Origin: Schmidtea polychroa
Taxonomy: Eukaryota
Assembly (NCBI GenBank): GCA_044892525.1
Contig: CM097885.1
Location: 18,912,001 to 18,976,000 of the forward strand
DNA length: 64,000 bases
Direction: 5' to 3'
The translations under genes and the position numbers were made by a program. A model generated the notes under the pieces. That model was not told the DNA's origin and did no database searches. It was given only the letters and a program-made list of their open reading frames with translations. Shown here piece after piece: positions 5,197-60,929 of this stretch; position 1 is the stretch's first letter, and each line of letters begins with the position of its first letter.

Positions 5197-6661
5197 CAGG
5201 AATACCTCGCATAGTACGGTTTCGATCAGTACGGTTTCTCTATACTACGGTTTTGAAATTTTCAAAATATGATTGTTTTTAAAATGATTAAATAAAATTT
5301 TCGAAATTTAAAAAAGTTTTTTTAAATTAATTTTTTAGAATTTATTCGTTATTATAAAATCATTCGGCACGTGTTTAATAATTTGTTTTGTTACGTTTAA
5401 TTTCTGGTTTGTAGTTTTAATAAAAAATTGAATAAATAAACCGTAAAAACAGTCACTACGGATACATTCACGATCTCGCGATAATAGATCAAAGTTGTTG
5501 GTTTTATATTTTTAATCGTAGAGTATGTTGACTTTTATATATTTAGATTTTAATTTAAAAAATAAAATGAGTGGCAGAACAAAGTGTAAAAGTGACTCCA
5601 CAACCAAAAAACGCAAATGGCTCACTTTAGAACAGAAACTTCATGAGGAAGGGGCTTCGTTTGCTAAAGTAGGAAAAGAAAGGGTAATGAACGAGGCGTC
5701 AGTTCGGAAAATTGTGAAAAATAAAGATCAATACAAGTCGCAAGGTATAGCTATGGCGTCATATTTGTCAAAAGTGGTAACCAGAATTAGAAGCCCTCGA
5801 ATGGTTAACATGGAGCGACTATTATCTATATGGATAGAAGACCTTAGCCAAAAACATATTCCAATTAGTCAAATGGAAATTCAAGCAAAGGCACTAAGTC
5901 TTTACAAAGACTTGGGGACTAAAGATGAAGTAGAATACCTTGGTTCCAAAACTGGTGAAACCTTTACGGCCAGTCGAGGGTGGTTTTCTCGGTATAAGGA
6001 ACGAACTGGTATTCACAACGTACGTATTGTTGGGGAATCTGCAAGTGCAGATAAAGAGGCGGCTTTAAAATTCTATCCAGAAGAATTATCCAGAATTATA
6101 GAAAAAGGTGGTTACAAAGACGAACAAATATTCAATGTAGACGAGACTGCGTTATTCTGGAAAAAGTTACCAACACGCACTTTTGTAGCAGTGAATGAGA
6201 AGTCATGCCCGGGATATAAAATCTCAAAAGATCGTCTTACACTATTATTGGGTGATAATGCAGCAGGAGATTTAAAACTAAAACCGATGCTTGTATACCG
6301 AGCAGAAAATCCTCGAGCTCTTAAGGGTTTATCAAAAAAATTTTAATATTTTTAAAATGAAATAAATTCTTTTTTTGATTTAGTTGCAATGAATTGGTAT
6401 TGCCGGCTTATAAATTTCAATAAATATATATTTAAATGTACAACTGTGTGAAATATGCTTGTTTTGCTCTTGAATATCAGAAAAATAAAAATACATAACA
6501 AAATATTTTTTGTTTACTAGATTATAATCACGATTTTTAAATTTCTTAATAAGGGTACTAAGACGTAAATTTATTAGCGCCAGAATGCCTCGAATACTCC
6601 GGTTTCAAATAGTACGGCTAAATTCAAGAACCGATTAACCGTACTGTTCGAGGTATTCCTG
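5197..6661 (+). mobile_element. Tigger/pogo DNA transposon, internally deleted
   Basis: 25-bp TIRs CAGGAATACCTCGcAtAGTACGGTT (2 mismatches), TA TSD, truncated transposase inside. Confidence 0.92.
5567..6346 (+). pseudogene. Tigger transposase, C-terminally truncated (CENP-B-type HTH + start of DDE domain)
   Basis: FTASRGWFSRYK, IFNVDETALFWK, KDRLTLLLG..AGDLKLKP..YRAENPRALK; ends before the remaining catalytic Asp residues. Confidence 0.9.
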
Positions 6662-16663: not shown

Positions 16664-17359
16664 ATTTAGTATCTTGAGTATCATACAAAAATGCTGATTT
16701 GAAACTCTTCTTAATAGTAAATTTTACTTCCATGAATTAGACATTTACATTGGAATTAAATCATTCAAAAGTATTCTAATTCCACCAAATTTAGTTTTTT
16801 CGTACTGATTCCATAGAAACCATTAAGAAGTTAATATCCTAAGATAAGATTATACTTCTTTAAACCAAAATGCATCAACTGTTTGAAGCAATCCAATAAG
16901 ACCCCTTGTTTATATTTAGATCTTTATGATGTATTTACTTATTCTAATTCTATAATTAATAAAGTATATCACAATATTTTAATAATTAGAATTAAACTTA
17001 TTAAAATAAAACTTTGCTAGAGCAGCTGACTGTGAAAGCGAGCATCGAGGATAAAAACTCTTGTTCTGAATATGATATTTCTTTCTAACTACAAAGTCCA
17101 TTTACAATCACGCTCTCATGTCGATCAGCTGTTGTGCTTCTCTTTAATCTTCTTCAAATCATGGACCGTTCCATGATCTTCCGCCTGCAACTGCTCGTAC
17201 TACTCGATCCTTTGGTTCAGTTTCTTAACATAATCAGGACGGAACCAAGTCAATTACATTCGCTTACATCTTCACACCAGCTCTTCCGCTCTAGGAGATT
17301 GTTTGATCGCTGTGGCCGTGAACCGATCTACGTCTATCTGTAATTAATAATTAAATGAT

Positions 17360-18811
17360 AGTAGGTAGTTATGTGCACTCTAGATCCAGATACCCCCCCT
17401 GTTTTTTTTAAAAATTTTTTTTAAAAGACCCCCCATAATTTTTTTTTAAAGACCCCCCTTTTTTTTAATTTTATTTTTTTGTTTTAATCATCGATTACGT
17501 AATAATTTTATTTTTTGTTTTAATCATCGATTACATAAAATTTTTGTTTTAATTATTGATTACGTAATATTTTAATTTGTTTTAATTACCGATTATGTAA
17601 CAATTTAAAAAATTTTTAAAACGTTGATTACGTCATTGATTTTAATTTTTTATAAGAATTTCTTATGTCATTATACTTGAAATTTAATTCTCTGTTAAAT
17701 GAGACTATGATGTAATCAAAATTCTGAAATTTCATTTTTAGTACACCATTTTTTAAATTTACACATCTTTTTAAACAAATTGAGATATGTTCACTCAAAC
17801 AATATATAGATAGAATTTTAATCTCTATAAAATGACATCATTATTTACTTCAAATTCATAATCATAACACCTTAAATAATGTATTTTTCAGCCAACTTTT
17901 ACATACACACATATTTTCAACTTTTAAAAAATACAAATTATTCATCTATACTTAACTCATAGTAAATAATTATATTAAAAGACATATTAAAAGATGTATT
18001 AAAAACTAAACATTTATTAAAATCCCAGAGAAATTCGAGCACTATCTAATTTCCAAATCGGTGATATGACATCTTTCTCATCCATTTTATATCCCTGTAT
18101 TGAAATATTTACAAACCAGCTTTCCCCATCTTTATATTCAATTTCTTCAAAGGCATCATGAAAACGAGAATTTTGATTGTTGATGATTATATTTCCATTG
18201 CAACTTAGATTCTTATTGATTTTCCCCAACACTTTATTTACTGCAACAACATCTTCTTTTGTTATATGAGCAATGAAACTTGAATATTGCGACTTGATCA
18301 ATTTGACTGCATTTGAGAATTTATATGGAATTTCGTCTACCAAGAAATATATCTTATGGTTATGATACATTTGTACTGGTTTCACATCATTCTTGGCATG
18401 CTTCGTCTCAGTTTTTTTCTTAATTGGGCTTGTTTCTTTCAATAAATTAGAAAATGTTTTCTCACCAAAAACGTTCTTCTTGGATTGCATTTTTTAAAAA
18501 TAATGACTATGATGTCATTTTATCTCTCTTTTATACTTGTGTATAACCAATCAAATTAATGCATTTGTATTGCAAACAACATGCATGTGTCATTGACCTT
18601 CGTGTGTGACCTTTGTATGTGACCTTTACCTTTGTGACCTTTGTATGTGAGTCATACATGGTTTGCATATGTATTGCAGATGTATTGCAAATTAGTTAAT
18701 TAAAACGTGTACTAATTAGTGTGATATTAAAAATATTATACTAATACATGTAACATAAAAATACTATAACAACATAAAAATAGTGTACTATCACCAGTAA
18801 CAATATAAAAT
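17360..18811. repeat. Left terminal inverted repeat of the Maverick (~1.45 kb)
   Basis: Near-identical reverse complement of ~35240-36660. Confidence 0.95.
18017..18490 (-). CDS. 157-aa protein encoded within left TIR (unknown; possibly OB-fold SSB-like)
   Basis: Intact ORF duplicated at 35561-36034 with 3 aa differences. Confidence 0.75.
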   Translation of the reverse strand: MQSKKNVFGEKTFSNLLKETSPIKKKTETKHAKNDVKPVQMYHNHKIYFLVDEIPYKFSNAVKLIKSQYSSFIAHITKEDVVAVNKVLGKINKNLSCNGNIIINNQNSRFHDAFEEIEYKDGESWFVNISIQGYKMDEKDVISPIWKLDSARISLGF

Positions 18812-18844
18812 TAAAAACACAGTATTATAATAACTAAACATTTA

Positions 18845-19030
18845 TTAGTGATCTACAATTAATGAAAAGTGAGCTTTTCTCAACTCTTTTCTTAATATCC
18901 ATATATTATACTTCTTCTCTCTATCAATACATCCTTCGCATTTGTATGGGCATACTGATGGCTTGCTGCTGTCAACAGGGTCAAGATCGTCTTCTAACGT
19001 CCTCAAGTGATCAAACAAGACCACATTCAA
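18845..19030 (-). CDS. Small Maverick ORF with CxxxCxxC motif
   Basis: CPYKCEGC; packed head-to-tail with neighbours and followed by AATAAA on the minus strand. Confidence 0.35.
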   Translation of the reverse strand: MNVVLFDHLRTLEDDLDPVDSSKPSVCPYKCEGCIDREKKYNIWILRKELRKAHFSLIVDH

Positions 19031-19323
19031 ATCTATTCAGGTAGACATCCATATTCTGAATGGAATAATCTCTTGTGCCCAATAGATTAGATCCTTTAAA
19101 ATATTCGGATATAATTCCCCCATTTTCCCAATCAGAATCTGTATCATTTTTTCTAAAACATTTAAAATTATAAATATAAAAAGCAATAATCAAAATATAC
19201 CATTTACAGTTAAATTTGACATTCTCAACTAGTACTAAATAAATGATTAAACTGTTATTGTATATATACTTATTTCGATACACACCATCAACCATTTGGA
19301 TTCATGCATGGACGATTGTAACT

Positions 19324-20289
19324 TTAGTTTAGGAAAAATTTTAAAAATTCCATGTCATCAATTACTGATTTAATATCTTTAATAATTTTATAAACAAGTA
19401 AATGGTAATCCAATGTCTTTATACCGAGTATAACTACTTTACCACTATTGAATATGTTAACACACATTGGATTGTATTTTATATATCTTAATGCCGGAAA
19501 TATTTCTGGTTCGTAAATACATTTAATATACTTTGATAAATCATTTAAAATAACATTTGATTCAATATCAGCAGTAACTGTAATCGATTGAATTTGTAAA
19601 TCCTTGATTTCATATTTTAAATCTTCAACTTTGATCGATTTTTTACATCCCATTATTCGACATTTACCTGACTTGAAAAATATTATTGTATGTTTACCGC
19701 TTCTGTCAACAATTTGTTGATATATTTCATGTCAGAAAATGCTCGTTCACAAATATATGTACTATCAAACATAGAAATTAATTTTAAGCCCAAATCGCGC
19801 AATTTTGGATATTTGTCGTTTGGAAACATTTTGAATAAATTTACCCCTGTCTCCAGCCTTGATTTAAAAAATTCGTTAGCTTGCAATTCACATAATTCCA
19901 TTATATATTTAATATCGGTTTCTTCAACGTCGATGGTAGTCGGATTATTAAATAATTTTAGTTCTGGTTTAATTGCAAGTTCATTACAACACTCGAAGTG
20001 CACCAAATTGTTGTTAATCAAACGTAACTTATTGCGGAATCCGATGATATGGCTTACCAGATGACTTATGTTTTGGTCTTTGCCTTGCAAGTTTTTGTTC
20101 AAAACATTCAAATATTCGGTAATATCTGCTAAAAATGCTAATGAAATTAAAAATTATTCGACATTTACCTGACTTGAAAAATATTATTGTATGTTTACCG
20201 CTTCTGTCAACAATTTGTTGTGGTTTACCTTTTGGAAATTCCATATGAGATACATCAAATCTACCTTTATAATTTATATTACTAATCAT
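19324..20289 (-). pseudogene. TATA-binding-protein-like gene (154 aa when restored), interrupted by an insertion
   Basis: N-half TIIFFKSGKCRIMGCK and C-half YEPEIFPALRY...VNIFNSGKVVILG match the two TBP repeats (YEPELFPGLIY...LIFVSGKVVLTG). Removing 501 bp restores one ORF. Confidence 0.8.
19720..20152 (-). mobile_element. Fragment of hAT (Charlie/GTF2IRD2-like) transposase inserted in the TBP-like gene
   Basis: LNKNLQGK..., KYPKLRDLGLKLISMFDSTYICERAFSDMK (hAT dimerisation motif); flanked by a 68-bp direct duplication 19652-19719 / 20153-20220. Confidence 0.85.
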
Positions 20290-20374
20290 ATTTTTTCAAA
20301 TAATTTTTCATCAAGTAAACTGATGAATTAAAACAAATATAAACAATATTAATATATATAACTAATTTTTTAAA

Positions 20375-20998
20375 ATGGAATTAAGAAATGATGCTGTTTA
20401 TCAAATTGTAGGTCCAAGCGGTAGCGGTAAAACTTTATTTGTTTGTAAATTATTACAATCAAAAATGTTCAAGTCAAAATTCAATAAAATTTATTGGCAT
20501 AGGGGTGCTGATGACGAACATGGTTTGACGCAAGAACAATTCTGTAAATTAAAAATGACAATAATAAAAGGATTTGATAAAAACTGGTCATCTAGATTAC
20601 AACAGGGTGATGTAATTATTATTGATGATTTATATCAAGAAGCTAACAAAGAAAAAGATTTTAATAATTTATTTACAAAAATATCTCGACATCAAGGTGT
20701 AACAGTTATTTTTATAACACAAAATCTGTTTCATCAGGGCGGGAGTCATCGAACTCGGAACTTGAATGTTCAATATCTTGTTATTTTCAAAAATCCGAGG
20801 GATGCAACTGTTATTGATTTCATTGCAGGACAAGCATATCCAAACAATCGTAACTTTCTAATTGAATCATTTCAAGATGCAACCAAAATACCCCATGGAT
20901 ATTTATTCTTTGATTTTACTCAGCAATGCATGGATGATGTACGTATTAGGACAGATATTTTTAATAAAGATGGTGTAACAGTTTATAAACAAAATTAA
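20375..20998 (+). CDS. Maverick DNA-packaging ATPase (A32/FtsK-like)
   Basis: Walker A GPSGSGKT, Walker B IIIDD, SRHQGVTVIFITQNLF, FKNPRD, PHGYLFFD. Confidence 0.93.
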   Translation: MELRNDAVYQIVGPSGSGKTLFVCKLLQSKMFKSKFNKIYWHRGADDEHGLTQEQFCKLKMTIIKGFDKNWSSRLQQGDVIIIDDLYQEANKEKDFNNLFTKISRHQGVTVIFITQNLFHQGGSHRTRNLNVQYLVIFKNPRDATVIDFIAGQAYPNNRNFLIESFQDATKIPHGYLFFDFTQQCMDDVRIRTDIFNKDGVTVYKQN

Positions 20999-21022
20999 AT
21001 TATGAATCTATTATAATAAAAA

Positions 21023-21199
21023 ATGGGGTTCAAGAAAGTTTTAATTAAACATGATAATCAATTAGTCAAAGTGAATAATGTCAAGAAACGTGTAAAGAAA
21101 CATGTAAAGAATTCTATAAAAAAGATAGTAAAGAATTCTGTAAAGAAAACGTTGAAGAAAAGATCAATCAAAACACCTAAAAAATGGATTAAATTATAA
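21023..21199 (+). CDS. 58-aa lysine-rich peptide (possible DNA-condensing core protein)
   Basis: MGFKKVLIK...VKKRVKKHVKNSIKKIVKNSVKKTLKKRSIKTPKKWIKL; fills the gap between two viral genes; below the ORF-track cut-off. Confidence 0.55.
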   Translation: MGFKKVLIKHDNQLVKVNNVKKRVKKHVKNSIKKIVKNSVKKTLKKRSIKTPKKWIKL

Positions 21200-21232
21200 A
21201 CAAAGTTAAACGATAAAAAATAAATTTCAATA

Positions 21233-21565
21233 ATGAAATTACAACGTAGTATACCATATTTTAATGCATTGATAAAAGCACCACTCATGAAAAGAACAAG
21301 TATTTTACAGTCATTCCCACAATTTGTTGTGGACGATTTGCTTGAAATTATTGTTAATGTTGTGCGTGGCAATGTTGACATTAGTAAAGCGAAAAAACCT
21401 GTATTGCAAAACCATAAAAAATCACTTTTATCTTTAGTAAATATAAAAAATAAACGTATAATGCGAAAAATTATGTACAAACAGAAAGGGGGGTTTATAT
21501 CAACTTTGATACCAATCGCATTATCTTTATTAGGTGGATCTGGTTTATTAGGTGAGCCTTCATAA
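21233..21565 (+). CDS. Maverick small core-like protein with GG|F hydrophobic tail
   Basis: C-terminal QKGGFISTLIPIALSLLGG resembles adenoviral-protease-cleaved pX-like tails seen in Polintons. Confidence 0.7.
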   Translation: MKLQRSIPYFNALIKAPLMKRTSILQSFPQFVVDDLLEIIVNVVRGNVDISKAKKPVLQNHKKSLLSLVNIKNKRIMRKIMYKQKGGFISTLIPIALSLLGGSGLLGEPS

Positions 21566-21663
21566 ACGTTAAATTATTTTAATATCATCATCATAAACAA
21601 TGGGTCAATTACCTATGGGACATTTACCAAACCTTATTCTAAATTTTAAATCATCGTGTTGTA

Positions 21664-22683
21664 ATGGAGAAGATATGGACAAACCCAAAAGATCCAGCCG
21701 GTTTCGGTGGAGTCGAAAAGTTAAAGAAAAAAGTACCCAAATCAAAAAAGGAGACTCAAAAATGGTTGTCAAGTCAACTGGCATACAGTTTAAACAAGCC
21801 AATGTTGAAACGGTTTCCCACAAGAGCATATAAAACATATGGTATTAATGATTTATGGCAAATGGACTTAATGGAAATAATTCCATTTTCTAAAATTAAT
21901 AAGGGTTACAAATATATTTTGACATGTATTGATGTCTTTAGTAGATTTGCTCGAGCTATACCATTGAAAACCAAATCTGCTAGTGAAATGGCTGTTGCAA
22001 TAAAAACAATGTTTAAAAACGGTAAACCAGATAATTTACAAACTGATTTGGGTAAAGAATTTTATAATAGCAAAGTTAAAGAAAATCTAAAGGGAATAAA
22101 TCATTACTCTGTTTTTTCACAATTCAAAGCTGCTCATGTGGAAAGGTTTAATAGAACATTAAGAGATCGATTGAAAAAATATTTTGTACATCAAGGTAAC
22201 AAAACCTGGATAAATGTTTTACCGAAAATAATTCATAGTTACAATCATTCCGAACATGGAGGTCTAAATGGTATGAGACAGATTGATGTAACATCTAAAA
22301 ATAGTATGAAAATATTATTATCACAGCAAGATGTAACAAAAATTAAGAAACCTAAATATAAAGTTGGTGATCATGTTAGAATAAGTAAAATATCGGCTTC
22401 ACCATTCATTAAAAATTTTGACAACAACTGGAGTGACGAAGTCTTTCAAATATCGAAGATTAATACGAAACAGACTCCCGTTATGTATGTTATTAAAGAT
22501 ATTGATAATAATGAAATCCAGGGTAAATTTTACGAACAGGAACTGCAAGTTATTCCGACACCATCTGTCTTTAGAATTGAAAAAATTCTTAAATCAAAAT
22601 ATAAAGGTAAGGATAAACAATAATACGTCAAATGGCATGGATATCAAAACCCAACTTGGATATCAGCATCTCAAATTGAATGA
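21664..22683 (+). pseudogene. Maverick retroviral-type integrase with C-terminal chromodomain (premature TAA at 22621)
   Basis: WQMDL, CIDVFSRFA, LQTDLGKEF, VERFNRTL, GKFYEQEL; frame continues after the stop as YVKWHGYQNPTWI. Confidence 0.92.
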
Positions 22684-22719
22684 ATAGAAACAGTTTTTTC
22701 ACTATTTTACCAAGCAATA
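22680..22719 (+). pseudogene. First 13 codons of probable minor capsid (penton) gene, cut by LTR insertion
   Basis: MNRNSFFTILPSN matches the FxxxLPSN N-terminus typical of Polinton minor capsid proteins and follows the integrase. Confidence 0.6.
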
Positions 22720-23534
22720 TGTTCATTTTTAAAGTCAATATCGCGAACAATGATTTTATTTTTGGATAACAATTTGTCCAGGTCTATAATCGAAGATACC
22801 GCCATCATTGAACATCCTAATGGCCGCCTTGGTGCCGATTGGGAATGGAATTGAGCCATATCCGCCATAGAACGCCATATCCTGTCGCAAGGCATTTCAT
22901 ATCCATGTTTATATCTAAATCGAGCTGCTTCCATTTGTGCACGACATACTTGAGATCGACAATCAGGGATCATACCAATCATAACGCCTCCAGTACTTTC
23001 AGTAATATTAAACAATCTCGTAGCTGAACTCATCTCAATCATTTTATCGGGAACTTTTCCTTTCGCATATACAACAATAATTCCATCTAAATCAATAGTT
23101 CTGATTTTAAAGTCAACTCCAATTGTGCTTCTGCATTGTTCAGTATAAGTATCATCTTCCAATTCGGGATTCATTTGATTATTGGCAACGTCCGGTTTCG
23201 AAACAAATTGTTAATTCCAATTATAATCACAAAAAACTTCTAGAACCAAATAACGAAACTTCTCCCAGTAAAACAATTTCACCAAAAAATTTTTAATTCC
23301 ACTAAAATCCTTTTAAAGCAATTAATCCAGCAAAATCAATTTAATTTACCAACCATTAATTTCTCTCGCGTTTGCGTGCGCACACCCACAAGAATCGGTC
23401 TAACCAGACCGCGCACACAGACGTGAACACAAAAAGCCAAACAACACCCACAACTATATGCGTCTGTGTGCGCCCACAGCCAACAACACAAGGATAGTAA
23501 AAGGCGCACACAGACCCGAACATCGAATTAAACA
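22720..23534 (-). repeat. 3' LTR of element 1 (815 bp) containing Rab1/PSMA6 chimeric ORF
   Basis: 22720-23291 matches 29407-29978; I saw one substitution (23032/29719). ORF starts at 23174. Confidence 0.93.
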
Positions 23535-26500
23535 TCCTCCCCCCTTGACACTTTGGTGTCAATCTCACATCCCCATTAACTTCTCCTTCTTTTGTGATCA
23601 AGCATAATTTAGATATGCATCTTAATACCTCCTTTCCTTCACATTTTATCCTCATCACGCGTAGCTTTCCGTCTTCTCCCGGTATCACTTCGATTACTCT
23701 CCCCATTGGCCACTTCCCATACTCATTCCTTTTGTCTAAAACCCACACTGTTGACCCTGTCTTGACATCATCTTCTATCTTATTCCATTTCGCCCTTTGC
23801 CGCCAGCACGGGACCAATTCTTTCATCCATCGCCGCCAGAAGTGCTCGGTTAACTCCTGAATTCGTCTCCACCGAAACATCGTACATGACATTTTCTTCA
23901 CTTCTATATTTTCCACAGCTTCTCCTTTCCAACCGGCAATTAATAAATGATTTGGAGTTAGCACAGCGTCTTCCTTACTGTCTACTGCCTGAACCACTAA
24001 GGGCCGAGAATTTATCAACATTTCAGCCCTTGTCAAAACATTTCCCAATTCTTCGTCGGTCACATCTGCACTTGTCAGTAAGGCATTCATAGCTCGCTTT
24101 GCCGATTTGATCATGGACTCAAAAACTCCCCCAAAATGCGGTGCTGATGGAGGATTGAAGATCCAACTACATTGATGCTTCGACAACTCTCTTTGAGTTT
24201 TATAGTTGTCGATTACAAAATTCTTTACTGTAGAAGTGGCGCCTATGAAATTTGTGCCATTGTCTGAGATCATCAATTTTGGCATCCCCCGCCTCGCTGC
24301 AAACCTCATAAACGGTCGAATGAATGAGTCTGTGTCCAACCCATATGCCATTTCAATATGCACCGCCCGTGACTTTAAACATACGAATAGGCAAATGTAC
24401 CTTTTATTTCTCACCTTTCCTCTGCCTACTTTAGTTTCAAACGGTCCTGCAAAATCTACTGCCGAGTGAACAAAGGCTCTAAAAGGTTCTGAAACTCTGA
24501 ACGCCGGTAACGGTGCCATTATTTGACTCATTCCTTTAGCTTTTCTTTTTCTACACATTCCGCAATCTGTCTCACATTGTTTGATCATTACTTTGGCCTT
24601 CAAAATCCAATATTTTTCGTTCAACACACTTAAGACATGTTGAGTTCCTGCATAATGGCTCAAACTTTCATGGCAATCTTTGATGATTAGTCTGGTGACC
24701 CAACTCTTGTCCGATAGAATTATTGGATATTTTGTCTCCCATGGTAAATTCTTTGCATGAATTATGCGGCTATTACTTCGTAACACAGTCATCTCATCTA
24801 AAACTGGTGTCAACTTTAACAAACGGCTTCTGATATCTACCCTTTCATTCTTGATAAGTCGTGCCAGGTCCTCAGAGAAAAACTTCGCCTGCTCTCCTTT
24901 AATTACATTGAGTTCCATTCTTTTAAGCTCCTCAGTTGTCAGTTGCCCTGTGGTTCTTTGGGACTGTGTCGTTCTCGTGTTCAAAATAAATCGCTCCACC
25001 CAGGCCCGCACCCTGATCAATCTCTGCCATGAGGAAAAGGTTTCTACTTTGAAACAGTCCGTGTTCCCTATTCGTCTTTGCCCATCTACACACGCCATCA
25101 TTGTTATTCCCTTTCGCAACTCCTTTGTTACACTGGATTGGTTTAACTCCGTCGCTGGCCAATTTCCCATTGGTTCTAGTAGAAATTTCGGTCCCTCCCA
25201 CCACATGGTGCTGTTTATCAAATCCGATGCCGATAATCCTCTTGTGATCAAATCCGATGGATTTTCACTTGTTGGAACATAATGCCATTGCCCAGGTTTG
25301 GTCATTTCTTGAATGAACCCAATTCGATTAGCTACGAATGGCTTGAATAGTCTCGAATAATTTCGAACCCAATGTATTACGTCTTTACTATCGGACCAGA
25401 ACCATATCTCACTCATCGGTTTCCCGAGCACTTCTGAAACCCGTCTTGCTAATTTAACTCCAGTACACGCGGCCATTAATTCCAACCTTGGTATACTTAT
25501 AATTTGCACTGGAGCTACCTTTGCCCTTGACGCAATTAACACACTTTTAGGTCCCACCATAGTTTCTTCCCGTAGATATATAGCTGACCCATATGCGGTG
25601 CTTGACGCATCGGAGAAGACATGTAATTGCCATTCATTTTTCATTTGAGTCCTTAAACATCTCGCAATTCGCAGATCTCCGAAATTATTTGTGTCCTCTA
25701 CCCACTTGTGTATTTCTTTATTCAACTTTGGAGGTAGCTTTTCGTCCCAATCAAGCCCTGACAACCACAACTTCTGAATAATCTTTTTCCCTATGATTAT
25801 GAATGGGCCTAACAGTCCCAATGGATCAAAGATTCTTGCCACTATGCTCAATACCTTTCTTTTCGATAAACATTCCTCATTCGGCAGATCTACTTGAAAA
25901 CTAAATTCATCGTCTTCCGAGTACCATTTCAAACCTAGGGTCTTGACGGCCATTGTCGTTTCCTTTTCAATATTCAGTGTTTTAGCTCGTTCTTCAATTG
26001 GGATTGTCGCCATAATTCTTTCCGAGTTGGACAGCCATTTTCTAGGCCGCATTCCGGCATTGCCCCAAACTGTTTCTAGCCCCTCTTTCAGCCTCATTCC
26101 TTCTTCTTCAGAATCAACAGAGTCCATGGTGTCGTCCATATACGTAGACTTGCAAATAGATTCTGTCACTTTTGGGTAGTCCTTTTCAAATTTCTTTGCA
26201 TTCTCTTGCGCGACTAGCTGGGCAAGGAATGGAGATGCATTAAGACCAAACACTAACCGATTAAACTCATACTTAATAATTTTCCCCCCAGTTGACCATA
26301 AAAATCGATGATATTTCCTGTCTTCAAGAGCCATTCTTATTTGCAGATACATTTCTGCTATATCACAAACAACAGCTACGGAAAATCGACGAAAACGAAT
26401 TAAAATATCAAAAACTTCATTTTGTAATTTTGGGCCAACTTCCACCATATCATTAAGTCCCACCCCATTACACCTGGCTGCCGCATCAAACACAATACGC

Positions 26501-27146
26501 ACTTTCGTGGTGTCCTTATCTCTTCTAACCACGGGAAAGTGTGGTAATATCCATTCCGAATCTCCAGGCATCATTTTCTCTTTTACAATACTTATATAAT
26601 CTTTTTTCAGGTAACCATTCAAAATATCCTGATACTCAGTTCGTAAGTCTTCCTTTTCAAGCCTCTTGTCCAAACTTCGCAGTCGACTTTCTGCCATTTT
26701 TTCACTATTGGGCAAAGCTGTTGGTGACTCTTTCCATGGCACTCTTACCTCGAAATGTCCGTCTACTTTCTTCATCTCAGATTTGGTTTTCTCATAAATC
26801 GCTTGGTCTTTCACTGCAAATATATTTTCCTTTAAGCCGCTATCATCAATTTCCCAAAATCGCTCCATCTGTCGTTGCAAATCCTCGCCATTACCGAAGA
26901 ACGTTCGTATGAAATTGCTTTGATGGTTCCAAGTTCTTCCCACCGAGGTTCTTCCCACACATGTCAAGCCAAGTGGCGTTAAACGGGCAATCGGTTCATC
27001 CAACTTACCATCGATTTCTTTGAGTGCTCGTTGAAGCGTTAAATAATCCGCGCCAATTAACACTTCAACTGCCTGTCTCTCGTCTAGCATCGGAAAATGG
27101 ATGCCCTTCAGGTGAGTCCACTTATGTTTTTCTCTGGCCCAATTTA
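23356..27146 (-). CDS. BEL/Pao Pol (end of protease region, RT, RNase H, integrase)
   Basis: KVRIVFDAAA, CDIAEMYLQI, FGLNASPFLA, YMDD, FSDASSTAYG, IPRLELMAA, VDFAGP, SDNGTNF, GGVFESMIK. Separated from gag by a 1-nt frameshift near 27150. Confidence 0.95.
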
Positions 27147-29861
27147 CTACCTCATTTCTCCCGTGATATTTGTTACGGCCAGTGCGTTGAAGTTTTTCGT
27201 CAATCGGCCGTCATTACTAATTAACTTCATGGTCACTGGAGTAGCCATCATTTGTTGGACATTACCTCCGATAACCCCTATCGGTGTCCTCTTTTCCACC
27301 CCTTTTAACCCAAGCTCCTTTAAAATTCTTAGATTGATGTAGCTTACTGAGCTTGCATCATCTAACAGTGCATTGACTTTTATTTTCTTGTTCCCATTTT
27401 CCAGGTAGATTGGAATTGTTCTTAAACTAAGGTAAGGTCTTAGGTTTTTCTCGTTCATCCCTTTCTGGGTCAGCATCGTGTTGTTACCTTTTTCACTCTC
27501 CTCACTAATTTGTCTTTCATGTAATAATTCGTTGTGCCTTTGCTTACATCCGGTAACCTTGCAGAAAGATTCTTTACGACATTCCTTGGCCATGTGATTT
27601 CTTTTGAAGTAATTCCTGCACAGTTTCTTTTCTTCGATGACTTTCTTCCTTTTAGGAATTGTGAGTTGCTTGAACTTGTCACATTGGTCTAGGTAATGTT
27701 GACCACCACAGTGTACACACTCTGATCTATAGCCGTTAGAGTTATTCACCTGTATAACTGTTCCACTTTTAACTCTGCCATCTGGTTGCCCCGTAAAATG
27801 CGTCCGACCTCCAGGATTGAATCTTTCTCTTCCCCTAGACACCCCTTCTACTCTTGACCCATCATAAGCCCTGGTGCTTGGTTTAGTCCCATACACAACC
27901 TCGTTAGTGGACCTTAGGATCTCCGCTTCTTGTTGTATCCATCTTCTCAAATCCTCTATTGTCTCCCGCAATTCCTTTTCTATTTTGTCTTTTTTCCATT
28001 TATACACAAGATTCGTCGTTAACTTGCCCAAACACTTTTGAAAAAGATAGCCAGTCTTTAACTCGGATTCTTTCCCAGTGGATTTAAATCGCACGGTGAC
28101 CGTTTCTAATAATCCAACAAATGAGTCTAGATCCTTCAAATCTCCTTCTCGAATTGGCCTGAACTGTTCCATCTCCTCTAACATTGATAAATATATCCTT
28201 TCATCCCCACCATATCGCCTATCCAACTTCTCTTTTGCCATTTGATAAGCCTCTGCCGAATATCCAAGATTTTCAATTAACTTTAATGGCTCTCCGTGAA
28301 GGTACTTGTGCAGGTGAAACATCTTTTCAACCTCATCACCTTCCGCTTCGTCAACACATGCAGTAAAAGCTGCTTTCCATGGTTCGTAATCTTTCATCTT
28401 GCCTTCAAAAACAGGGATTGTAATTTTCTGTAGACTTTCCAGTTTTCTTTTATGCCCGGAATTATTCTTCTTGATGGTATCATCATTCACATTTTCCTTC
28501 TCTTCCATAAAAGATTGATTTGCTTTTCTTTCCATCAATGCCCCAATTATTTGATGTTTTTCCTCGATCTCTTGCAGGTCTTTATCTAAGATTGCAGTGA
28601 TGTCCAATCTTTGCAATTTTTTACTGATTGTTCTCAGATCCCCTAATTCTTCATCTAGACTCTCCTTTTGATCTTCATATTCCGCCAACCATTCGCTAAC
28701 ATCCTTCCCATTTATATCATTGAGAATCTTGTTTCTTAATCTCGTTAATTTTCCTTTTTTCATTCTCTTTTTCCACAGTCCTTCTTCTAAAATCTCTTCG
28801 TCATTGCCCCCGCACAGCCTGAGTGACAAATGAAGTGTCGACCCTACTTGTATCCTATAATCATTCAATCTTCTTTTATTTTCTAACTGCTTTCCTGCGT
28901 ATACTAACATTTGATAATTTTCCGGAATTCCTTCTTTGTCCTGGATTTTTCCTTTTATCTTTTCAATTGTGTCCTTCCATTTAACGTCCAGAGTAATTGT
29001 CTTACCAGTAAGAGTTTTGACAAATATTTGACTTTCCCATCGCAACTCAAAACCCATTACCCCGCTCGCCCTCACCCTTGACTCAGCTCTGTTATTTACC
29101 CTGTTCCCCTGGCTTCCCCCTTTAAAAGAGTGCTGGGGCCCATAGCAGCACTTTCCCACGCTCGGTAGGGAAGGGAGGATGTTTAATTTTACAAAAGTAT
29201 TATAATATATACATAATATGCGTGACCACAAACAAGATTCTTTATAATACATATTAATTACCAAAATATTATTAATTACAAAAATATTATTAAACACATA
29301 ATAAACATAATATTTACATAATATATATAAAACCAAAAAAGACATTTTATAATACATATTAATTACCTTGTTCCGGCTGGCTAGCCGGAACCACGCTCTG
29401 CTACCATGTTCATTTTTAAAGTCAATATCGCGAACAATGATTTTATTTTTGGATAACAATTTGTCCAGGTCTATAATCGAAGATACCGCCATCATTGAAC
29501 ATCCTAATGGCCGCCTTGGTGCCGATTGGGAATGGAATTGAGCCATATCCGCCATAGAACGCCATATCCTGTCGCAAGGCATTTCATATCCATGTTTATA
29601 TCTAAATCGAGCTGCTTCCATTTGTGCACGACATACTTGAGATCGACAATCAGGGATCATACCAATCATAACGCCTCCAGTACTTTCAGTAATATTAAAC
29701 AATCTCGTAGCTGAACTCGTCTCAATCATTTTATCGGGAACTTTTCCTTTCGCATATACAACAATAATTCCATCTAAATCAATAGTTCTGATTTTAAAGT
29801 CAACTCCAATTGTGCTTCTGCATTGTTCAGTATAAGTATCATCTTCCAATTCGGGATTCAT
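27147..29861 (-). CDS. LTR-initiated polyprotein: host-derived leader - ubiquitin - Gag - aspartic protease
   Basis: Rab1 and PSMA6 fragments, read-through of the PBS ([14 protein letters not shown]), ubiquitin 28806-29033 ending LRLCGG, Pao-type Gag (IPVFEG..YEPW), Cys/His knuckles, protease ALLDDASS. Confidence 0.88.
29389..29406 (-). promoter_or_regulatory. Primer-binding site complementary to initiator tRNA-Met 3' end
   Basis: TGGTAGCAGAGCGTGGTT directly after the LTR's CA; metazoan tRNA-iMet ends ...CTCTGCTACCA. Confidence 0.85.
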
Positions 29862-29978
29862 TTGATTATTGGCAACGTCCGGTTTCGAAACAAATTGTTA
29901 ATTCCAATTATAATCACAAAAAACTTCTAGAACCAAATAACGAAACTTCTCCCAGTAAAACAATTTCACCAAAAAATT
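29407..29978 (-). repeat. 5' LTR of element 1, lacking ~243 bp of U3
   Basis: Identity to the 3' LTR stops at 29978; no terminal TG or TSD. Confidence 0.9.
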
Positions 29979-29991
29979 CTTATTAATAAAA

Positions 29992-30411
29992 ATGTCTTGT
30001 TATTTTATTGACTTTGTTGGTTATAATGATTATGCTGGTGGAATAATTATTAAAGAATTATGTATTATGAATGTAAATAATATTTTACGCCCAAAGTATT
30101 GGTTATTTAATGATTTACCATTTTGGGCTGGACGTGAAAATTCAGATCGATTGGAATGGTATGAAGGTGAAGATTTGTTTTGTCTAACATGTATATTGAG
30201 AGATGTAGAAGATACAAGTGGAATTTTCTATGTCACTGATCAAGATAAACTTACAGTTTTGAAAAATTATTTCCCAAATTTAAGATTAATAAAATATTCA
30301 ATCCAATTATCAGAATATTTTCCTGATAATATCTTGTGTCCTTACCGTGATCATTCTAATTGTGCTTACAAAAATTGTTTAATTGCTGTGTTAGATTATT
30401 TAAAAAATTAA
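29992..30411 (+). CDS. Maverick accessory protein, RNase H/3'-5' exonuclease-like with C-terminal Cys/His cluster
   Basis: FIDFVGY...IIKELCI at the N-terminus, CPYRDHSNCAYKNC at the C-terminus. Confidence 0.55.
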   Translation: MSCYFIDFVGYNDYAGGIIIKELCIMNVNNILRPKYWLFNDLPFWAGRENSDRLEWYEGEDLFCLTCILRDVEDTSGIFYVTDQDKLTVLKNYFPNLRLIKYSIQLSEYFPDNILCPYRDHSNCAYKNCLIAVLDYLKN

Positions 30412-30731
30412 TAAAGTTTTTGATTAAAAATTATATTATTATTAATTTTGTTATTATTACTCATATGCATTAAGATTGCAGTTTAAATGCATGATTAATC
30501 ATGTTCTCTTAGTTTGTGTTAAATTTTTATTTTGTAATGTGTGTAAGTTTTGCTTCCCAATGTGTGAAAAGTATTTCACATTGTGTGTAAATTATATTTC
30601 ATAGTGCGTGTGCATGTAATACTCTCAATTTCTATTGGGTGAATAAATATTACGCAATTTATGATATATAAAGCAATGTTTAAAAATATACCATCACTTT
30701 TTTATATACCTAAAATTTTAAACTCAACAAA

Positions 30732-31100
30732 ATGTCAAGAAATAATCAAGGAAGCCAAAGCGGAAACAGTGTCAAGAATGGCAAGATTTATTTATTTGTC
30801 ATTATTATAATTTATAGGTCTTCATCGTAATTTCAACAAAAGTTCTAACAATAACAGTGAAAACATGCCAAATGGTATTTCGTTATTATTATTATTAAAT
30901 TTATAATTATTTATTCTTTTTAGATTTTATTATAAACAACATGAATGGATGCATTATAAATGGACGAAATATGAACGAGTCAAGTACAAATAACAATAAT
31001 AATGGTAACAATTTGATTGCGCGCTGTACTGCATATGGAAAAAATGATTGCAAAATATCAAAAAGAAAATTTAAATGTAAGATTTTTAATGAATTTTTAT
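30732..31100 (+). CDS. Spliced Asn-rich exons upstream of pPolB (possible 5' extension)
   Basis: TATATAAA at ~30665; exons 30732-30780, 30818-30874, 30924-...; phase-1 GC-AG and GT-AG introns of 37 and 49 nt keep the frame open. Confidence 0.45.
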
Positions 31101-31182
31101 AAGGTTTTATTAAAAGATTTATTAATGTTTTTATTTTAATAATAATTAATACTTTAAATACAATAACTATAATATAGTACTT

Positions 31183-31186
<4 letters not shown>

Positions 31187-31253
<67 letters not shown>
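31187..31253. repeat. (AAT)n microsatellite
   Basis: About 22 perfect units. Confidence 0.95.
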
Positions 31254-31254
<1 letters not shown>

Positions 31255-31334
31255 TCTTAAACCTTTGATTTCATTCAGGCTCAAAATATCAAAATTATTG
31301 TAATAGTTCATTACATGATGATTGTGATTTCATA

Positions 31335-34300
31335 ATGGAAAAATATTACAAACATAGCCATAATCATACCATCTTTTTTATTTGCCCTGTTTGTATGAAC
31401 CCCGAGACTGTAACATATATGGAGTTTTATCATCAACATAGGGATCATTTAACTCAGTATAATTTAAAGAAAAAAGACCTTATTAATTTATTAAAAAATA
31501 ATATTTCCAATACCTATAATCCCGCTATAAATCTTAATAATGTTACTACAAGTACTAATAATATGTCTAATGTAAATAATAATAAAAGAAAAATTAATTT
31601 ACCTAATCTAAAACCCTCTAAATTTCAGACACTGATGATGAGGTCGGTCATGCCTTTGATAGTTAACTCTTATTCACTTTTTAATAATAATAATGATAAT
31701 AATAATAATAATACTTCTATTACATCAACTTCTACAGAAGTCATTATTAATCAACAAGGTGGTTCACTTGAACCTGAAACCATATTCGATTTAAATAAAA
31801 CACACGCAGAAGTTAAAATGGATGTTTCATCCTTAAATTTAAAAACAGTTTCGATCCCTACTCAGTTAATAAATGAATTAAATAAAGTTTCATCCGAGAT
31901 GGGTTCAATAAAAATTCAATTTTGTTTGAAAGTGGAATTTGTAAAAGATGAAGAATTTCAATCATTCGTTATTTCAAATTCTGCTAGATCCATGAGTGAT
32001 ACCTTCTTAGAAGATGGTATTGATTTATTAAATGAAAAAATAATTAAAGTTAACGAAAAGGGAAGCAACTGGGTTATACATAAAATTGAATATATTAGTT
32101 TTATAATAACAAAATATTCGCAAATATCCAGATTAACTGGCCGTGGATATATTTCTACACCAGAAACATTATTAAATAAAAAATGTACTGTTAATATTAA
32201 AAATACAAATGATGAATGCTTCCTATATAGTATTTTATCTATTTTGAAATATAATAGTATTAGTACCAATAGATCTAAGCCATATAATTATAATACTTCG
32301 GAATTAAAATTCGATCCTGCAGATCTCCCTATGCGCCTTTGTAATATTTCTAAATTTGAATTCCAAAACCCTGGTTTATCGATAAATATTTTAACTTATA
32401 ACGAAAATATATTAAATGATGTTAAGAATACTGAAGAAGTTATGAAACATCCTTATGTTGACATAATTTATCGATCTAAAGTTATTGGGGGGACAACAAT
32501 TAATTTAATTTTGTTAGAAGATTCTGACACATATCATTACATAGGTATTACTAATCTTGATAGACTTTTGAATTGTAACGATTCTAGTGTAACTGCTGTT
32601 AGGATTTGTAGTAAATGGTGTCCGAGATGCTTAAATGGTTTTCGAAATCCTAATTCTTTCATGAGACACAAGGGTTTGTGTGATAAAAATCAGTTAGGGA
32701 CCACTCTCTTTACATTACTCGAAGATAAATATCTTAGTTTTACAAATTGGTTAAAGATTGTCACTCCTCCATTTGTTATTTATGCCGACTTTGAGGCAAT
32801 TTTACCTAAAGATAATAAATACCATCAAAAAAATTTACCAATCTCAGCTGGTTTTGTTTTTATAAATAATTTTACAGGGGATAAATTTTATAAAAGTTTT
32901 ATAGGATTGGATTGTGTTGAACAGTTTCTTCATGAACTTGAAGAAATTGGTAAGCAAATAGTGGCTCCATATTTTGAAACACGATATAGGAAAATGATGT
33001 TTTTTAATAGTATTGACAAAATAAACTTTTCTTCGGCTGTAAATTGTCATTTGTGTAAGAAAACTTTAGTAAATCCAGTAAGAGATCATGACCATTTTTC
33101 GGGTAAATATTTAGGTGCAGCTTGCTCAACTTGTAATCTTTCTCGAAGAATTAGACCGGTTTTACCAGTTATTTTTCATAACTTGAGAGGATATGATCTC
33201 CATCATATTCTCAAAATTGGCTTAGGTAAATTTAAATCATGGAATATTAATTGTATTTCTATAACTAGTGAAAAAGTTTTAAGTTTATATGCAAGAATTG
33301 ATGGATTAACTATAAAATTTATCGATTCTTGTCAATTTATTAACGATTCCTTAAAAAATGCTGTACAAACATTAACTACATTTCCATTGACTAATTCTGA
33401 ATTTAACGGAGTAATTGTTAATAGTAAAGGCATATTCCCATATGATTTTGCAACTAGTTTAGAAGTGTTTCAGGGAACTCCCCAATTACCACCAATTTGG
33501 GATGGTGTTACTGAAGTAGAATATGATATGGCTCAGCGCATTTGAGATGAACATAATTGTAATTCACTTTTGGATTACATGATGATATATTTAAAATTAG
33601 ATGTCTTTTTACTTGCGGATTATTTCCAACAGTTTAGAGCAAAATCAATAGCTCATAACAGATTGGAACCCTTAAACTTTTTAGGCATTCCCGGTATGTC
33701 ATGGAACTCTGCACTCATGACTTTAGATCATCCAATTGAGTTGATCCAAGACATGGAGATTTATAATTTCTTTGAGGGTGGGATTCGAGGGAGATTAACA
33801 TTTGTTAATAAACATTACGTAAAATCAGATGAAAACACAGAGTTGCTCTATATAGATATTAACAACCTATATGGTTGGGCACTTAGTCAGAAACTACCAG
33901 ATGGTAATTTTAAGTGGATTAACGATGAAATAAAATTAAATAAAATTTTAGACGATTGTATGAATGTTGACTTGGAATTACTCACATTCGGTTATACTGT
34001 TGAAGTCGATTTGGAAATTCCAGAATCGATTCATGTTAAGCTTGACGATTTCCCTGTTGCAGCTGAAAAGATGTGTACACCAGGATCCAAAGTGGAGAAG
34101 TTGATGCTTACCCACTATCCTAAAAAGAATTATGTAGTTCATTGGAGACTTCTCCAGCTTTATCTAAATATTGGGGTAAAGGTCACTAAGATTCATCGCG
34201 CTATACAATTTTAACAGTCATCAATATTTAAAAATTATATAGATACTAACACACAACTTAGGGCATCATCAACAAACACATTAGATAAAAATTATTTTAA

Positions 34301-35120
34301 ACTATTAAACAACAGTCTATACGGTAAGACTGTTGAAAACCTAAAGAAACGAATTAATTTAAGACTTTGCAATTCAGCCCAAAAGGTTTTAACATATTGT
34401 TCTAAACCTAATTTCAAAAGGACTACTAAAATCGATGACGACTTAATATCTGTTATATTAAGAAAAGATTTAATATGTTTAAATAGACCAAGTTATATTG
34501 GTCAATCAGTTTTGGATTTATCAAAACTTCGTATGTACCAACTTCAGTACATTGATTTAGAAAAATATCGTATAGAATTTAATTGTAAAATTAATATAGT
34601 TGCTGGGGATACAGATTCGTTCTTTTTGGAAATTAAAAATTGCAAATTAAATTCTCTTTTACCCGCAATGATAAGGGATAATTTATTAGATACCTCTAAT
34701 TACGAGCCAACACATTCATTATATTCAAAAAACCTTGACTCTGTAATAGGGAAATTTAAAGATGAAAGCAAGGGTCTTGGATATGATGAATGGATATTTT
34801 TAAGACCAAAATGTTATAGCATGAAGGGTAGTAAGGGATGTATGAAAGCGAAGGGGGTCACAATGAAAGATACTGGACTAACTCATCAGTCGTATCTGAA
34901 TTGTTATAATAATAATGAGATTTATACAGTACCACAATTTAGGATAACGAGTAAAAACCATCAACTTTTCAGTATTAAAAATAATAAGAGGGCTTTAACT
35001 AATGCTGACGATAAGCGCAATTGGGTACTTAAAAATAAAAGTTATGCGTATGGTCATTATAGGGGGGGGGTGGTATGGTTATGGCTGATGATTCTGATGA
35101 AGAAATGTTGCTGCCCATAG
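31335..35120 (+). pseudogene. Protein-primed family B DNA polymerase (pPolB) with two in-frame stops
   Basis: YADFE exonuclease, RDHDHFSGKYLGAACSTCNL EndoVII-like insert, FHNLRGYD, YIDINNLYG, KLLNNSLYGK, GDTDS, GKFKDE, PKCYS. The three ORF-track pieces share one frame, with stops at 33543 and 34212. Confidence 0.95.
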
Positions 35121-35239
35121 TTGATCCAGATGAAGATTTGCTATATCATCCTCATTTTCCGAATGATGATGGTTGTCAATTAATAAATTTTATGATATAA
35201 AAAAAATTTGTTTTCATTCTATTTTTAAGCGTTACAAAA

Positions 35240-36660
35240 TTTTTATATTGTTACTTGTGATAGTACACTATTTTTATGTTGTTATAGTATTTTTATGTTA
35301 CATGTATTAGTATAATATTTTTAATATCACACTAATTAGTACACGTTTTAATTAACTAATTTGCAATACATCTGCAATACATATGCAAACCATGTATGAC
35401 TCACATACAAAGGTCACAAAGGTAAAGGCCACATACAAAGGTCACACACGAAGGTCAATGACACATGCATGTTGTTTGCAATACAAATGCATTAATTTGA
35501 TTGGTTATACACAAGTATAAAAGAGAGATAAAATGACATCATAGTCATTATTTTTAAAAAATGCAATCCAAGAAGAACGTTTTTGGTGAGAAAACATTTT
35601 CTAATTTATTGAAAGAAACAAGCCCAATTAAGAAAATAACTGAGACGAAGCATGCCAAGAATGATGTGAAACCAGTACAAATGTATCATAACCATAAGAT
35701 ATATTTCTTGGTAGACGAAATTCCATATAAATTCTCAAATGCAGTCAAATTGATCAAGTCGCAATATTCAAGTTTCATTGCTCATATAACAAAAGAAGAT
35801 GTTGTTGCAGTAAATAAAGTGTTGGGGAAAATCAATAAGAATCTAAGTTGCAATGGAAATATAATCATCAACAATCGAAATTCTCGTTTTCATGATGGCT
35901 TTGAAGAAATTGAATATAAAGATGGGGAAAGCTGGTTTGTAAATATTTCAATACAGGGATATAAAATGGATGAGAAAGATGTCATATCACCGATTTGGAA
36001 ATTAGATAGTGCTCGAATTTCTCTGGGATTTTAATAAATGTTTAGTTTTTAATACATCTTTTAATATGTCTTTTAATATAATTATTTACTATGAGTTAAG
36101 TATAGATGAATAATTTGTATTTTTTAAAAGTTGAAAATATGTGTGTATGTAAAAGTTGGCTGAAAAATACATTGTTTAAGGTGTTATGATTATGAATTTG
36201 AAGTAAATAATGATGTCATTTTATAGAGATTAAAATTCTATCTATATATTGTTTGAGTGAACATATCTCAATTTGTTTAAAAAGATGTGTAAATTTAAAA
36301 ATGGTGTACTAAAAATGAAATTTCAGAATTTTGATTACATCATAGTCTCATTTAACAGAGAATTAAATTTCAAGTATAATGACATAAGAAATTCTTATAA
36401 AAAATTAAAATCAATGACGTAATCAACGTTTTAAAAAATTTTAAAATTGTTACATAATCGGTAATTAAAGAAAATCACAATATTACGTAATCAATAATTA
36501 AAACAAAAATTTTACGTAATCGATGATTAAAACAAAAAAATAAAATTATTACGTAATCGATGATTAAAACAAAAAATAAAATTAAAAAAAAATTATGGGG
36601 GGGGGTCTTTTAAAAAAAACAGGGGGGTATCTGGATCTAGAGTGCACATAACTACCTACT
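35240..36660. repeat. Right terminal inverted repeat of the Maverick
   Basis: Reverse complement of 17360-18811. Confidence 0.95.
35561..36034 (+). CDS. 157-aa protein in right TIR (second copy)
   Basis: Near-identical to 18017-18490. Confidence 0.75.
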   Translation: MQSKKNVFGEKTFSNLLKETSPIKKITETKHAKNDVKPVQMYHNHKIYFLVDEIPYKFSNAVKLIKSQYSSFIAHITKEDVVAVNKVLGKINKNLSCNGNIIINNRNSRFHDGFEEIEYKDGESWFVNISIQGYKMDEKDVISPIWKLDSARISLGF

Positions 36661-36758
36661 AATGATAATTCAGGGACTATTTTTATATTTGAAAATTCAA
36701 TCATTTTTTTAAATATATACATCGCAGCAACAGGCTTAAGTTATTATTTGATTGTTTA

Positions 36759-56670: not shown

Positions 56671-57443
56671 TGTTTCAACCAGCCAGAGGGGATTGCCTCT
56701 GACTGGCATTTATTTGGCTTTTTCTATCGCGTCTGTGTGCGCGGTCTGGTTAGACCGATTCTTGTTGGTGTGCGCACACAGACGTGAGAAGTAGGTTTTG
56801 ATTGTTGTAATTTTTTATAAATTGTAGTTTGTTTTAGAAATTATTGATTCGACGAATTGTTGGAATTAAATAAGATTTGGTTTGTTTAAAACGGGATTGG
56901 TGGAGGATTTTTGAATCGAAATTTGGAGTGTTAAAGTTCCTTTGTTAAAATGGCTTCAGGTGTGAAATGTGATCCTTCAGTTGAAGAATATCTTAACAAC
57001 TTTAAATTAATCGTATCGATTGTCACGGAACTTTCACAGTCGTTGCCATAATTTTTCATGATTATGCATGGGATCGAGTCTTCTAAATTCACAGATAAGT
57101 TCGTCAATAAAAGCAACGATATTGTATTATGCATTCGTGAGGAAATAACATTGAATCATGCTATGTCGGATCTTTCAAATCGATTTGTTTGCAAAACGGA
57201 AATCAGAAATTATTTCATTGAAGAATTATCCAACCGATTTTCTCAGTTGTCCGAAGTAAAACATTTGGTTAAGTCGAAGTTTGAAATCGCGCGTGTGCTT
57301 CGACGGAAACAGCTACTGGATAAGATGGCATTATCTGATGATATCGAAATGGACAAGACATCATTCAAACCTGATCGACGTGGCCCTGTAGAGGCGGAAA
57401 ATAAAATCTTGAAAATTGTCAATCGTTTTTTTGGAATAAAACA
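56671..57443 (+). repeat. 5' LTR of element 2 (773 bp)
   Basis: Matches 60930-61704; I count ~5 substitutions and 2 single-base indels. Confidence 0.95.
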
Positions 57444-60888: not shown

Positions 60889-60929
60889 TTGGGTGGTTGA
60901 TCCGCTAGAAGGGATCAAGGAGGGGGAAA

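Follow-up and report, generated by a model that had tools for sequence, protein, structure and literature searches.

Captured host gene pieces in the LTRs of a Schmidtea polychroa BEL/Pao element form the front of a ubiquitin-Gag reading frame

The window that we analyzed, a stretch of 64,000 nucleotides from Schmidtea polychroa (contig CM097885.1), carries inside the 3' LTR of a BEL/Pao element an open reading frame on the reverse strand (23174..22707) in which pieces of two host genes, Rab1 and the proteasome subunit alpha-6 (PSMA6), are fused, raising the questions of how host coding sequence entered an LTR and why it is still open. An earlier note, made from the letters alone, had read this frame as a Rab1 N-terminus joined to PSMA6, and our searches agree with that translation and do recover the donors: Pfam returned a Proteasome match (E 4e-18), and among PDB sequences PSMA6 ranked first (5e-27) and Rab1A/B matched over residues 6-34 (1.5e-6). 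We propose that the mosaic is the stop-free front of a leader-ubiquitin-Gag frame, that it probably arose by template-switch captures, and that it is probably insulated by host deubiquitinases that would free Gag; we are far more certain of the capture and the shared frame than of the cleavage. The features of the element are as follows.

22719..23534 (-), 3' LTR of 816 bp (TG...CA), with full-length matches elsewhere in the genome at 92-99%
22719..22760 (-), the element's own LTR end: AATAAA, short U5 and att
22760..23060 (-), PSMA6 (proteasome alpha-6) fragment with host intron 2 spliced out
23066..23174 (-), three remaining blocks of Rab1 coding sequence, with the spliced exon 3/4 junction inside
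23175..23230 (-), captured Rab1 5' UTR in the 3' LTR copy, by alignment to exon 1 of the host gene
23535..23546 (-), polypurine tract, read in the sequence; the same tract precedes the 3' LTRs of sister copies
23359..27210 (-), pol: RT, Peptidase_A17 domain, integrase and DUF5641
27147..28805 (-), Gag (DUF1759, zinc-knuckle-like Cys/His motifs) and aspartic protease (weak Asp_protease_2 match, E 0.019)
28806..29030 (-), diverged ubiquitin that abuts Gag and ends in LSLRLCGG (PF00240, 2e-22)
29031..29387 (-), AT-rich linker, in frame and near-neutral
29388..29405 (-), primer-binding site, within the open frame
29406..29982 (-), 5' LTR remnant carrying the same Rab1 and PSMA6 mosaic, its first 239 bp gone

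The element belongs to BEL/Pao, possibly to the Flow superfamily. It has a DUF1759 Gag, Peptidase_A17, RT, an integrase in last place (PR-RT-RH-IN) and DUF5641, and its termini comprise TG...CA LTRs, a primer site (which we take to be of the initiator-Met tRNA type), a polypurine tract and, in sister copies L095, L097 and L099, 5-bp target duplications. An ATG at 29861 in the 5' LTR opens a frame that runs through the LTR end, primer site, linker and ubiquitin into Gag and protease, spanning 916 codons from stop to stop. In the window copy, pol is offset from the gag frame near 27150-27210; in sister copies gag and pol form a single long ORF. Stop-free frames of at least 1,900 codons were found at 11 of 110 Peptidase_A17 matches, and four of these, with 2,189-2,238 codons, must therefore include the LTR leader, as the distance from primer site to pol end amounts to about 1,960 codons.

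The element is nested in a Maverick/Polinton-like element (17359-36661) with 1.45-kb inverted repeats (17359-18810 and 35241-36661), an A32-like ATPase (20366-20998), an rve integrase (21643-22623) and DNA polymerase B pieces (31269-35120); a deletion in the middle of this surrounding element may have taken the first 239 bp of the 5' LTR with it. Elsewhere in the window lie an ORF with an RRM domain and a piece of a Tc5/pogo-type transposase (985-1743 and 5522-6346), as well as a second, internally deleted BEL element of the other of the family's two Gag lineages (56668-61704, forward strand; LTRs 99% alike). This second element has two ubiquitins before Gag, the first of them frameshifted, and its LTR holds a coding piece whose start we take to be cofilin-like, together with another coding piece.

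Both donors reside in the same genome (781 Mb, AT-rich, four large contigs), Rab1 at locus L125 and PSMA6 at L175. The host Rab1 gene was recovered by protein comparison, a degenerate Rab1 pattern having given no match in the genome, and one further search returned Rab proteins only. Among candidates for PSMA6, twelve Proteasome_A_N loci turned out to be other alpha-subunit-like copies, and further gene candidates were intron-less, LTR-like PSMA6 copies. We also came across many decayed intron-less copies of the 5' end of another proteasome alpha-subunit (L083-L091, L093, L094), which as far as checked lie outside this LTR family and possibly have a different mobile element as carrier.

Alignment to the host loci supports the earlier proposal of serial capture of spliced host mRNA. 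Introns are absent from the LTR at the Rab1 exon 3/4 junction and at the PSMA6 intron-2 junction, and one host locus beats its paralog: the older LTR L073 follows Rab1 through its successive exons, at 94-95% on the three gap-free exon blocks, versus 79-80% for paralog L126. About 55 nt of Rab1 5' UTR are retained upstream of the ATG in the window LTR. The earlier note's contrast between intron-less pieces and intron-rich donors holds for Rab1 and PSMA6 but not for SNF8, the captured part of which, found in sister LTRs, is 98% identical to the single-exon host ORF L043. The SNF8 capture begins at about residue 104 and is thus an internal coding piece without UTR. The window PSMA6 fragment shares 250 of 295 nt and 72 of 96 amino acids with the host gene. 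The short stretch that had been taken for a third capture combines the tail of PSMA6 with the AATAAA/U5/att terminus that belongs to the element itself.

The Rab1 part of the window corresponds to residues 1-110 shortened by deletions of 69, 87 and 66 nt, which removed the P-loop and switch II. The P-loop segment is indeed missing, as first noticed, but its loss is only one of three in-frame deletions, all of which postdate capture, because longer forms persist in other copies: L014 and others hold an intermediate piece, and L073, L076 and L080-L082 hold the full one. Skipping of exon 2 was rejected as the cause of P-loop loss, given that it would create an in-frame stop and that older LTRs hold the full segment. 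Candidates for the suggested junction microhomology were found: 4-nt shared words (CAGA, ATGG, TATG) flank the three deletions, and an imperfect one (CAAA/GAAAA) lies at the Rab1-PSMA6 joint. In the LTRs of L076, L078, L079 and L082, Rab1 residues 1-110, PSMA6 and a piece of methionine sulfoxide reductase B (SelR) stand in series.

The presence of the mosaic in both LTRs, which differ at 2 of the 577 bases that they have in common, had been ascribed to propagation by reverse transcription, and sister copies bear this out: in eight copies with two LTRs, the LTRs are 98.5-99.9% identical, and at least three of these copies show 5-bp target duplications. Element copies and PSMA6-bearing LTRs (L114-L119, L149-L152) also recur every 58 kb or so at about 15.55-16.06 Mb of G000 C1, in a large tandem duplication.

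Within the family, we surveyed 90 of 100 listed sites out of 223 genomic matches to the exact primer-site pattern, a sample of copies of common ancestry that leans toward well-kept ones. In 65 of the 90 copies, the Gag frame is stop-free for at least 300 nt upstream of the primer site, compared with 0, 1, 0, 0 and 0 copies for the other five frames, although the frames are non-independent owing to shared LTR-end stops. Ubiquitin follows the primer site in 84 copies, and none lies within 1,500 nt of it in the other six. Two Gag lineages, 33% identical, account for 50 and 30 copies (10 unassigned), and both begin right after the ubiquitin GG. In search of a control we examined 20 loci, none of which yielded a clean ubiquitin-less BEL element that has both LTRs and a primer site. 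An AATAAA begins 20-59 nt ahead of the LTR terminus in 83 of the 90 copies, any other 40-nt bin reaching at most 11; the captures lie upstream of it and therefore most likely in a long R region.

Pfam was run on all ORFs of at least 40 aa in six frames of 27 leader representatives (36 ORFs in the Gag frame, 169 in the others). Matches in the Gag frame comprised EAP30/SNF8, Proteasome, DSPc, TCP-1, Ras, Adaptin_N and Cofilin, the last below cut-off. Off-frame host matches occurred in 2 of the 27, both in sense orientation (LIM and Ras in L219, Adaptin_N in L215), and this six-frame search gave no antisense host-domain match. Four off-frame matches on the L233 antisense repeat, near or below cut-off, were taken as repeat artefacts, and hAT and RT_RNaseH matches in leader regions were read as flanking DNA. 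Copies L147, L154, L157, L205 and L233 have long stop-free leaders, parts of which are without a Pfam match above cut-off.

The leaders turn over rapidly, the 90 copies falling into 48 leader clusters, and one and the same leader, 97-99.5% identical over about 600 nt, stands before both Gag lineages (L154/L183/L214 versus L160/L204), which points to LTR exchange between families. Such turnover and sharing, together with the retained Rab1 UTR and ATG, would suit a benefit at the RNA level, in which host-like 5' ends make translation more efficient or hide the transcript from piRNA/siRNA silencing and the frame is a side condition. However, the internal gag-pol would be left unmasked, and several captures are, like that of SNF8, internal coding pieces without UTR. 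We thus regard an RNA-level benefit as quite unlikely to be the explanation by itself; it is compatible with insulation by ubiquitin and may add to it.

The earlier note had treated the kept frame as a mark of template switching. This reasoning is not supported, as template switching favors no frame; the open frame persists because the mosaic forms the N-terminus of a ubiquitin-Gag-Pol ORF. To determine what is retained in captured sequence, we scored changes against the host CDS in 39, 141 and 49 distinct regions of captured Rab1, PSMA6 and SNF8, respectively, excluding two-copy and multi-hit classes. Changes in single copies comprised 203 nonsynonymous, 54 synonymous and 17 stop changes, and those common to at least three copies comprised 136, 51 and 1. 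Stops are therefore depleted among shared changes (1 versus 17, p 0.002), and the ratio of nonsynonymous to synonymous changes is unshifted (p 0.14). Shared pN/pS was 0.56 for Rab1, 0.79 for PSMA6 and 1.17 for SNF8, and the window PSMA6 piece has a dN/dS of 0.5 relative to the host (28 nonsynonymous, 14 synonymous). Propagated amino-acid changes in the captures are thus near-neutral and stops are purged, with the PSMA6 dN/dS and the shared ratios of 0.56 and 0.79 leaving room for weak constraint.

Joints were compared across 152 distinct chains, with indels matched by position. Those present in at least two copies kept the frame in 11 of 15 cases (p 0.002), versus 11 of 23 single-copy joints. 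Among shared joints of at least 9 nt or between genes, all 10 were in frame (p 1.7e-5), the 9-nt threshold being post hoc, picked after an earlier indel tally by size; four small shared indels shift the frame. Against strict frame keeping, too, the distance from primer site to ubiquitin was divisible by three in only 10 of the 14 shared lengths, and in 10 of 24 single lengths. These patterns bear on the idea that the pieces are neutral passengers whose frame is intact merely through youth. The full copies are young, as their LTR identities indicate, and host identity in some LTR blocks is as high as 98%, yet the window PSMA6 piece is about 15% diverged and still stop-free. The purge of stops among propagated changes only and the in-frame large joints refute neutral passage as a full account, and we give it next to no weight.

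The same data speak to the notion that the mosaic peptides are host-manipulating effectors, for example fragments of Rab1, the proteasome or ESCRT-II with a dominant-negative action. Many donors belong to the proteostasis or trafficking machinery, and the PSMA6 piece persists in many subfamilies with the dN/dS given above. Against an effector role, the P-loop and switch II of Rab1 are deleted, all four changed codons of the longest Rab1 block are nonsynonymous, the nonsynonymous-to-synonymous ratio is alike in shared and single changes, and donors are freely swapped, abundant housekeeping mRNAs being expected as donors anyway. We consider effector peptides very unlikely.

What is conserved is the ubiquitin. 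Element ubiquitins are 70-80% identical to host ubiquitin, and the Gag-proximal ones of the two lineages gave dN/dS values of 0.14 and 0.15 against host polyubiquitin. Their shared pN/pS (0.27 and 0.11) resembles that of Gag (0.20 and 0.10), compared with 0.68 for the linker and 0.45 for the upstream ubiquitin of lineage B, so that the Gag-proximal ubiquitin appears to be under purifying selection. Both Gag-proximal ubiquitins keep L71, L73, G75 and G76; their GG is substituted in single copies only, and the upstream lineage B ubiquitin is without GG in three copies (RGV). I44 and R74 are changed in both lineages and R72 also in lineage B (I44V/V70S and I44N; R74C and R72G/R74A). The Ile44 patch is the site used by ubiquitin receptors, and Arg74 and Arg72 help many deubiquitinases bind. 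A single-sequence AlphaFold model of ubiquitin and the Gag start had a mean pLDDT of 50.7.

We then turned to relatives outside this genome. A protein query with ubiquitin plus Gag returned only polyubiquitin-like proteins among the 120 matches listed. Outside Gag relatives numbered 156, namely, the 6 best of one search, none of which had ubiquitin, and the 150 best from a representative library. Ubiquitin lies directly before Gag in 6 of these 156 best matches, ending LRLRGG in two and LKLRGG, LRLKGG, LNLYGG and LKEG in one each; hence five of the six end in GG, and P0263 ends in EG. In P0312, the Gag of which is 34% identical to that of the window, an HSP90 piece (E 1e-11) stands upstream in frame, followed by ubiquitin and a BEL Gag.

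We read the ubiquitin as a probable processing signal because of its purifying selection, the L-x-L-x-G-G exactly at the Gag start, and the partial loss of the Ile44 patch and Arg74 in two lineages. Cleavage may nonetheless be slow or absent, because Arg74, and in lineage B also Arg72, is changed, and Gag might start without the leader, because in-frame Met codons sit in the linker just upstream of ubiquitin. These features are also what one would expect if capture and frame selection proceeded in the same way and the ubiquitin were not cut by the host, remaining instead on Gag as a domain that serves folding, stability or trafficking, or being removed by the element protease, with Gag tolerating the leader or starting at a linker Met; purifying selection suits any retained function. 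On the other hand, an uncut ubiquitin would have no need of the GG that both local lineages and five of six outside relatives keep where Gag begins, the receptor-binding patch is altered, and an internal Gag start alone would not purge stops from the LTR part. We therefore consider an uncleaved ubiquitin unlikely.

Under the preferred explanation, insulation by a cleaved ubiquitin, the captured pieces, lying upstream of AATAAA, would sit in a long R at the 5' end of the element RNA, the part copied first from the primer site. During first-strand synthesis, the reverse transcriptase may switch to co-packaged mRNAs at short shared words, which would insert host sequence, at times with 5' UTR and ATG, into R and hence into both LTRs; later switches would remove or replace parts of it. 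Translation would start from the captured ATG, and spread would be limited to versions with a frame into Gag, consistent with the selection pattern, in which leader amino acids drift almost freely. Host deubiquitinases would then cut after the di-glycine of the Gag-proximal ubiquitin and free Gag.

More broadly, and with slightly less than even confidence, we suggest that an old BEL/Pao clade carries a fixed, cleavable but signaling-dead ubiquitin before Gag, and that this made its R region a self-renewing, frame-filtered exon-shuffling cassette. Such a cassette would draw on the transcripts of the host at large, move modules from one family to another although the two are only 33% alike, and leave behind, as solo LTRs, hundreds of in-frame chimeric ORFs with a promoter attached; the HSP90-ubiquitin-Gag protein would be the same design in another genome. 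LTR elements that capture genes are usually crippled by it, whereas in this coding-complete family captures in the LTRs are the rule, with a clear selection signature in which frame is kept, amino acids are free and ubiquitin is conserved. If the ubiquitin is an insulator, a retrotransposon would here be making natural use of the ubiquitin-fusion trick, with a counterpart in cytopathic pestiviruses; insulation would likely explain how new host genes are swapped in without the family dying, and template switching between element and host mRNA would be observable over many dated events. In practical terms, annotation will mistake these LTRs for hundreds of paralogs of Rab1, PSMA6 or SNF8, and the LTRs could confound RNAi and read mapping in the host animal.

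Our literature search, which covered few subscription journals and no Repbase Reports, returned no account of this BEL/Pao family or of ubiquitin-Gag retrotransposons. Capture by template switching is already known; the variant here is that captures lie in the LTR, in frame with ubiquitin-Gag. In Tan et al. 2016 (PMC5131818), LTR-mediated retroposition in animals captures partial spliced mRNAs at short shared words, yields multi-gene chimeras (one by the Pao element BATUMI) that pass through further copying rounds, and replaces part of the internal ORFs, giving a non-autonomous element. The pieces described here resemble those retrocopies in their intron loss relative to the parental gene and in candidate short words at switch points, but they lie inside the LTR of elements that retain gag-pol, and they are fused to Gag via ubiquitin and selected for frame. 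The BEL/Pao elements of de la Chaux and Wagner 2011 (PMC3118150) share the domain set and order of our element; that study reported two divergent families (54% similar) in a planarian, and here too there are two divergent lineages; the word ubiquitin is absent from the main text of that paper, whereas our element has ubiquitin before Gag. The planarian giant elements Burro/GYPSM1 (reviewed in PMC6431247) are likewise LTR elements with host-like domains in their polyprotein, but they are Gypsy-type, exceed 30 kb and hold stable internal domains instead of exchangeable LTR-borne leaders. Finally, in cytopathic BVDV CP Rit (PMC8310069), a ubiquitin captured from the host, with a second host fragment upstream of it, lies directly before a viral protein in the polyprotein, and host hydrolases cut there to give an authentic N-terminus. 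Here too a ubiquitin ends in GG right before the next protein, with another host fragment upstream; in contrast to those sporadic RNA-virus recombinants, for which cleavage has been demonstrated, this arrangement belongs to a retrotransposon clade that has long retained its ubiquitin and in which cleavage is probable.
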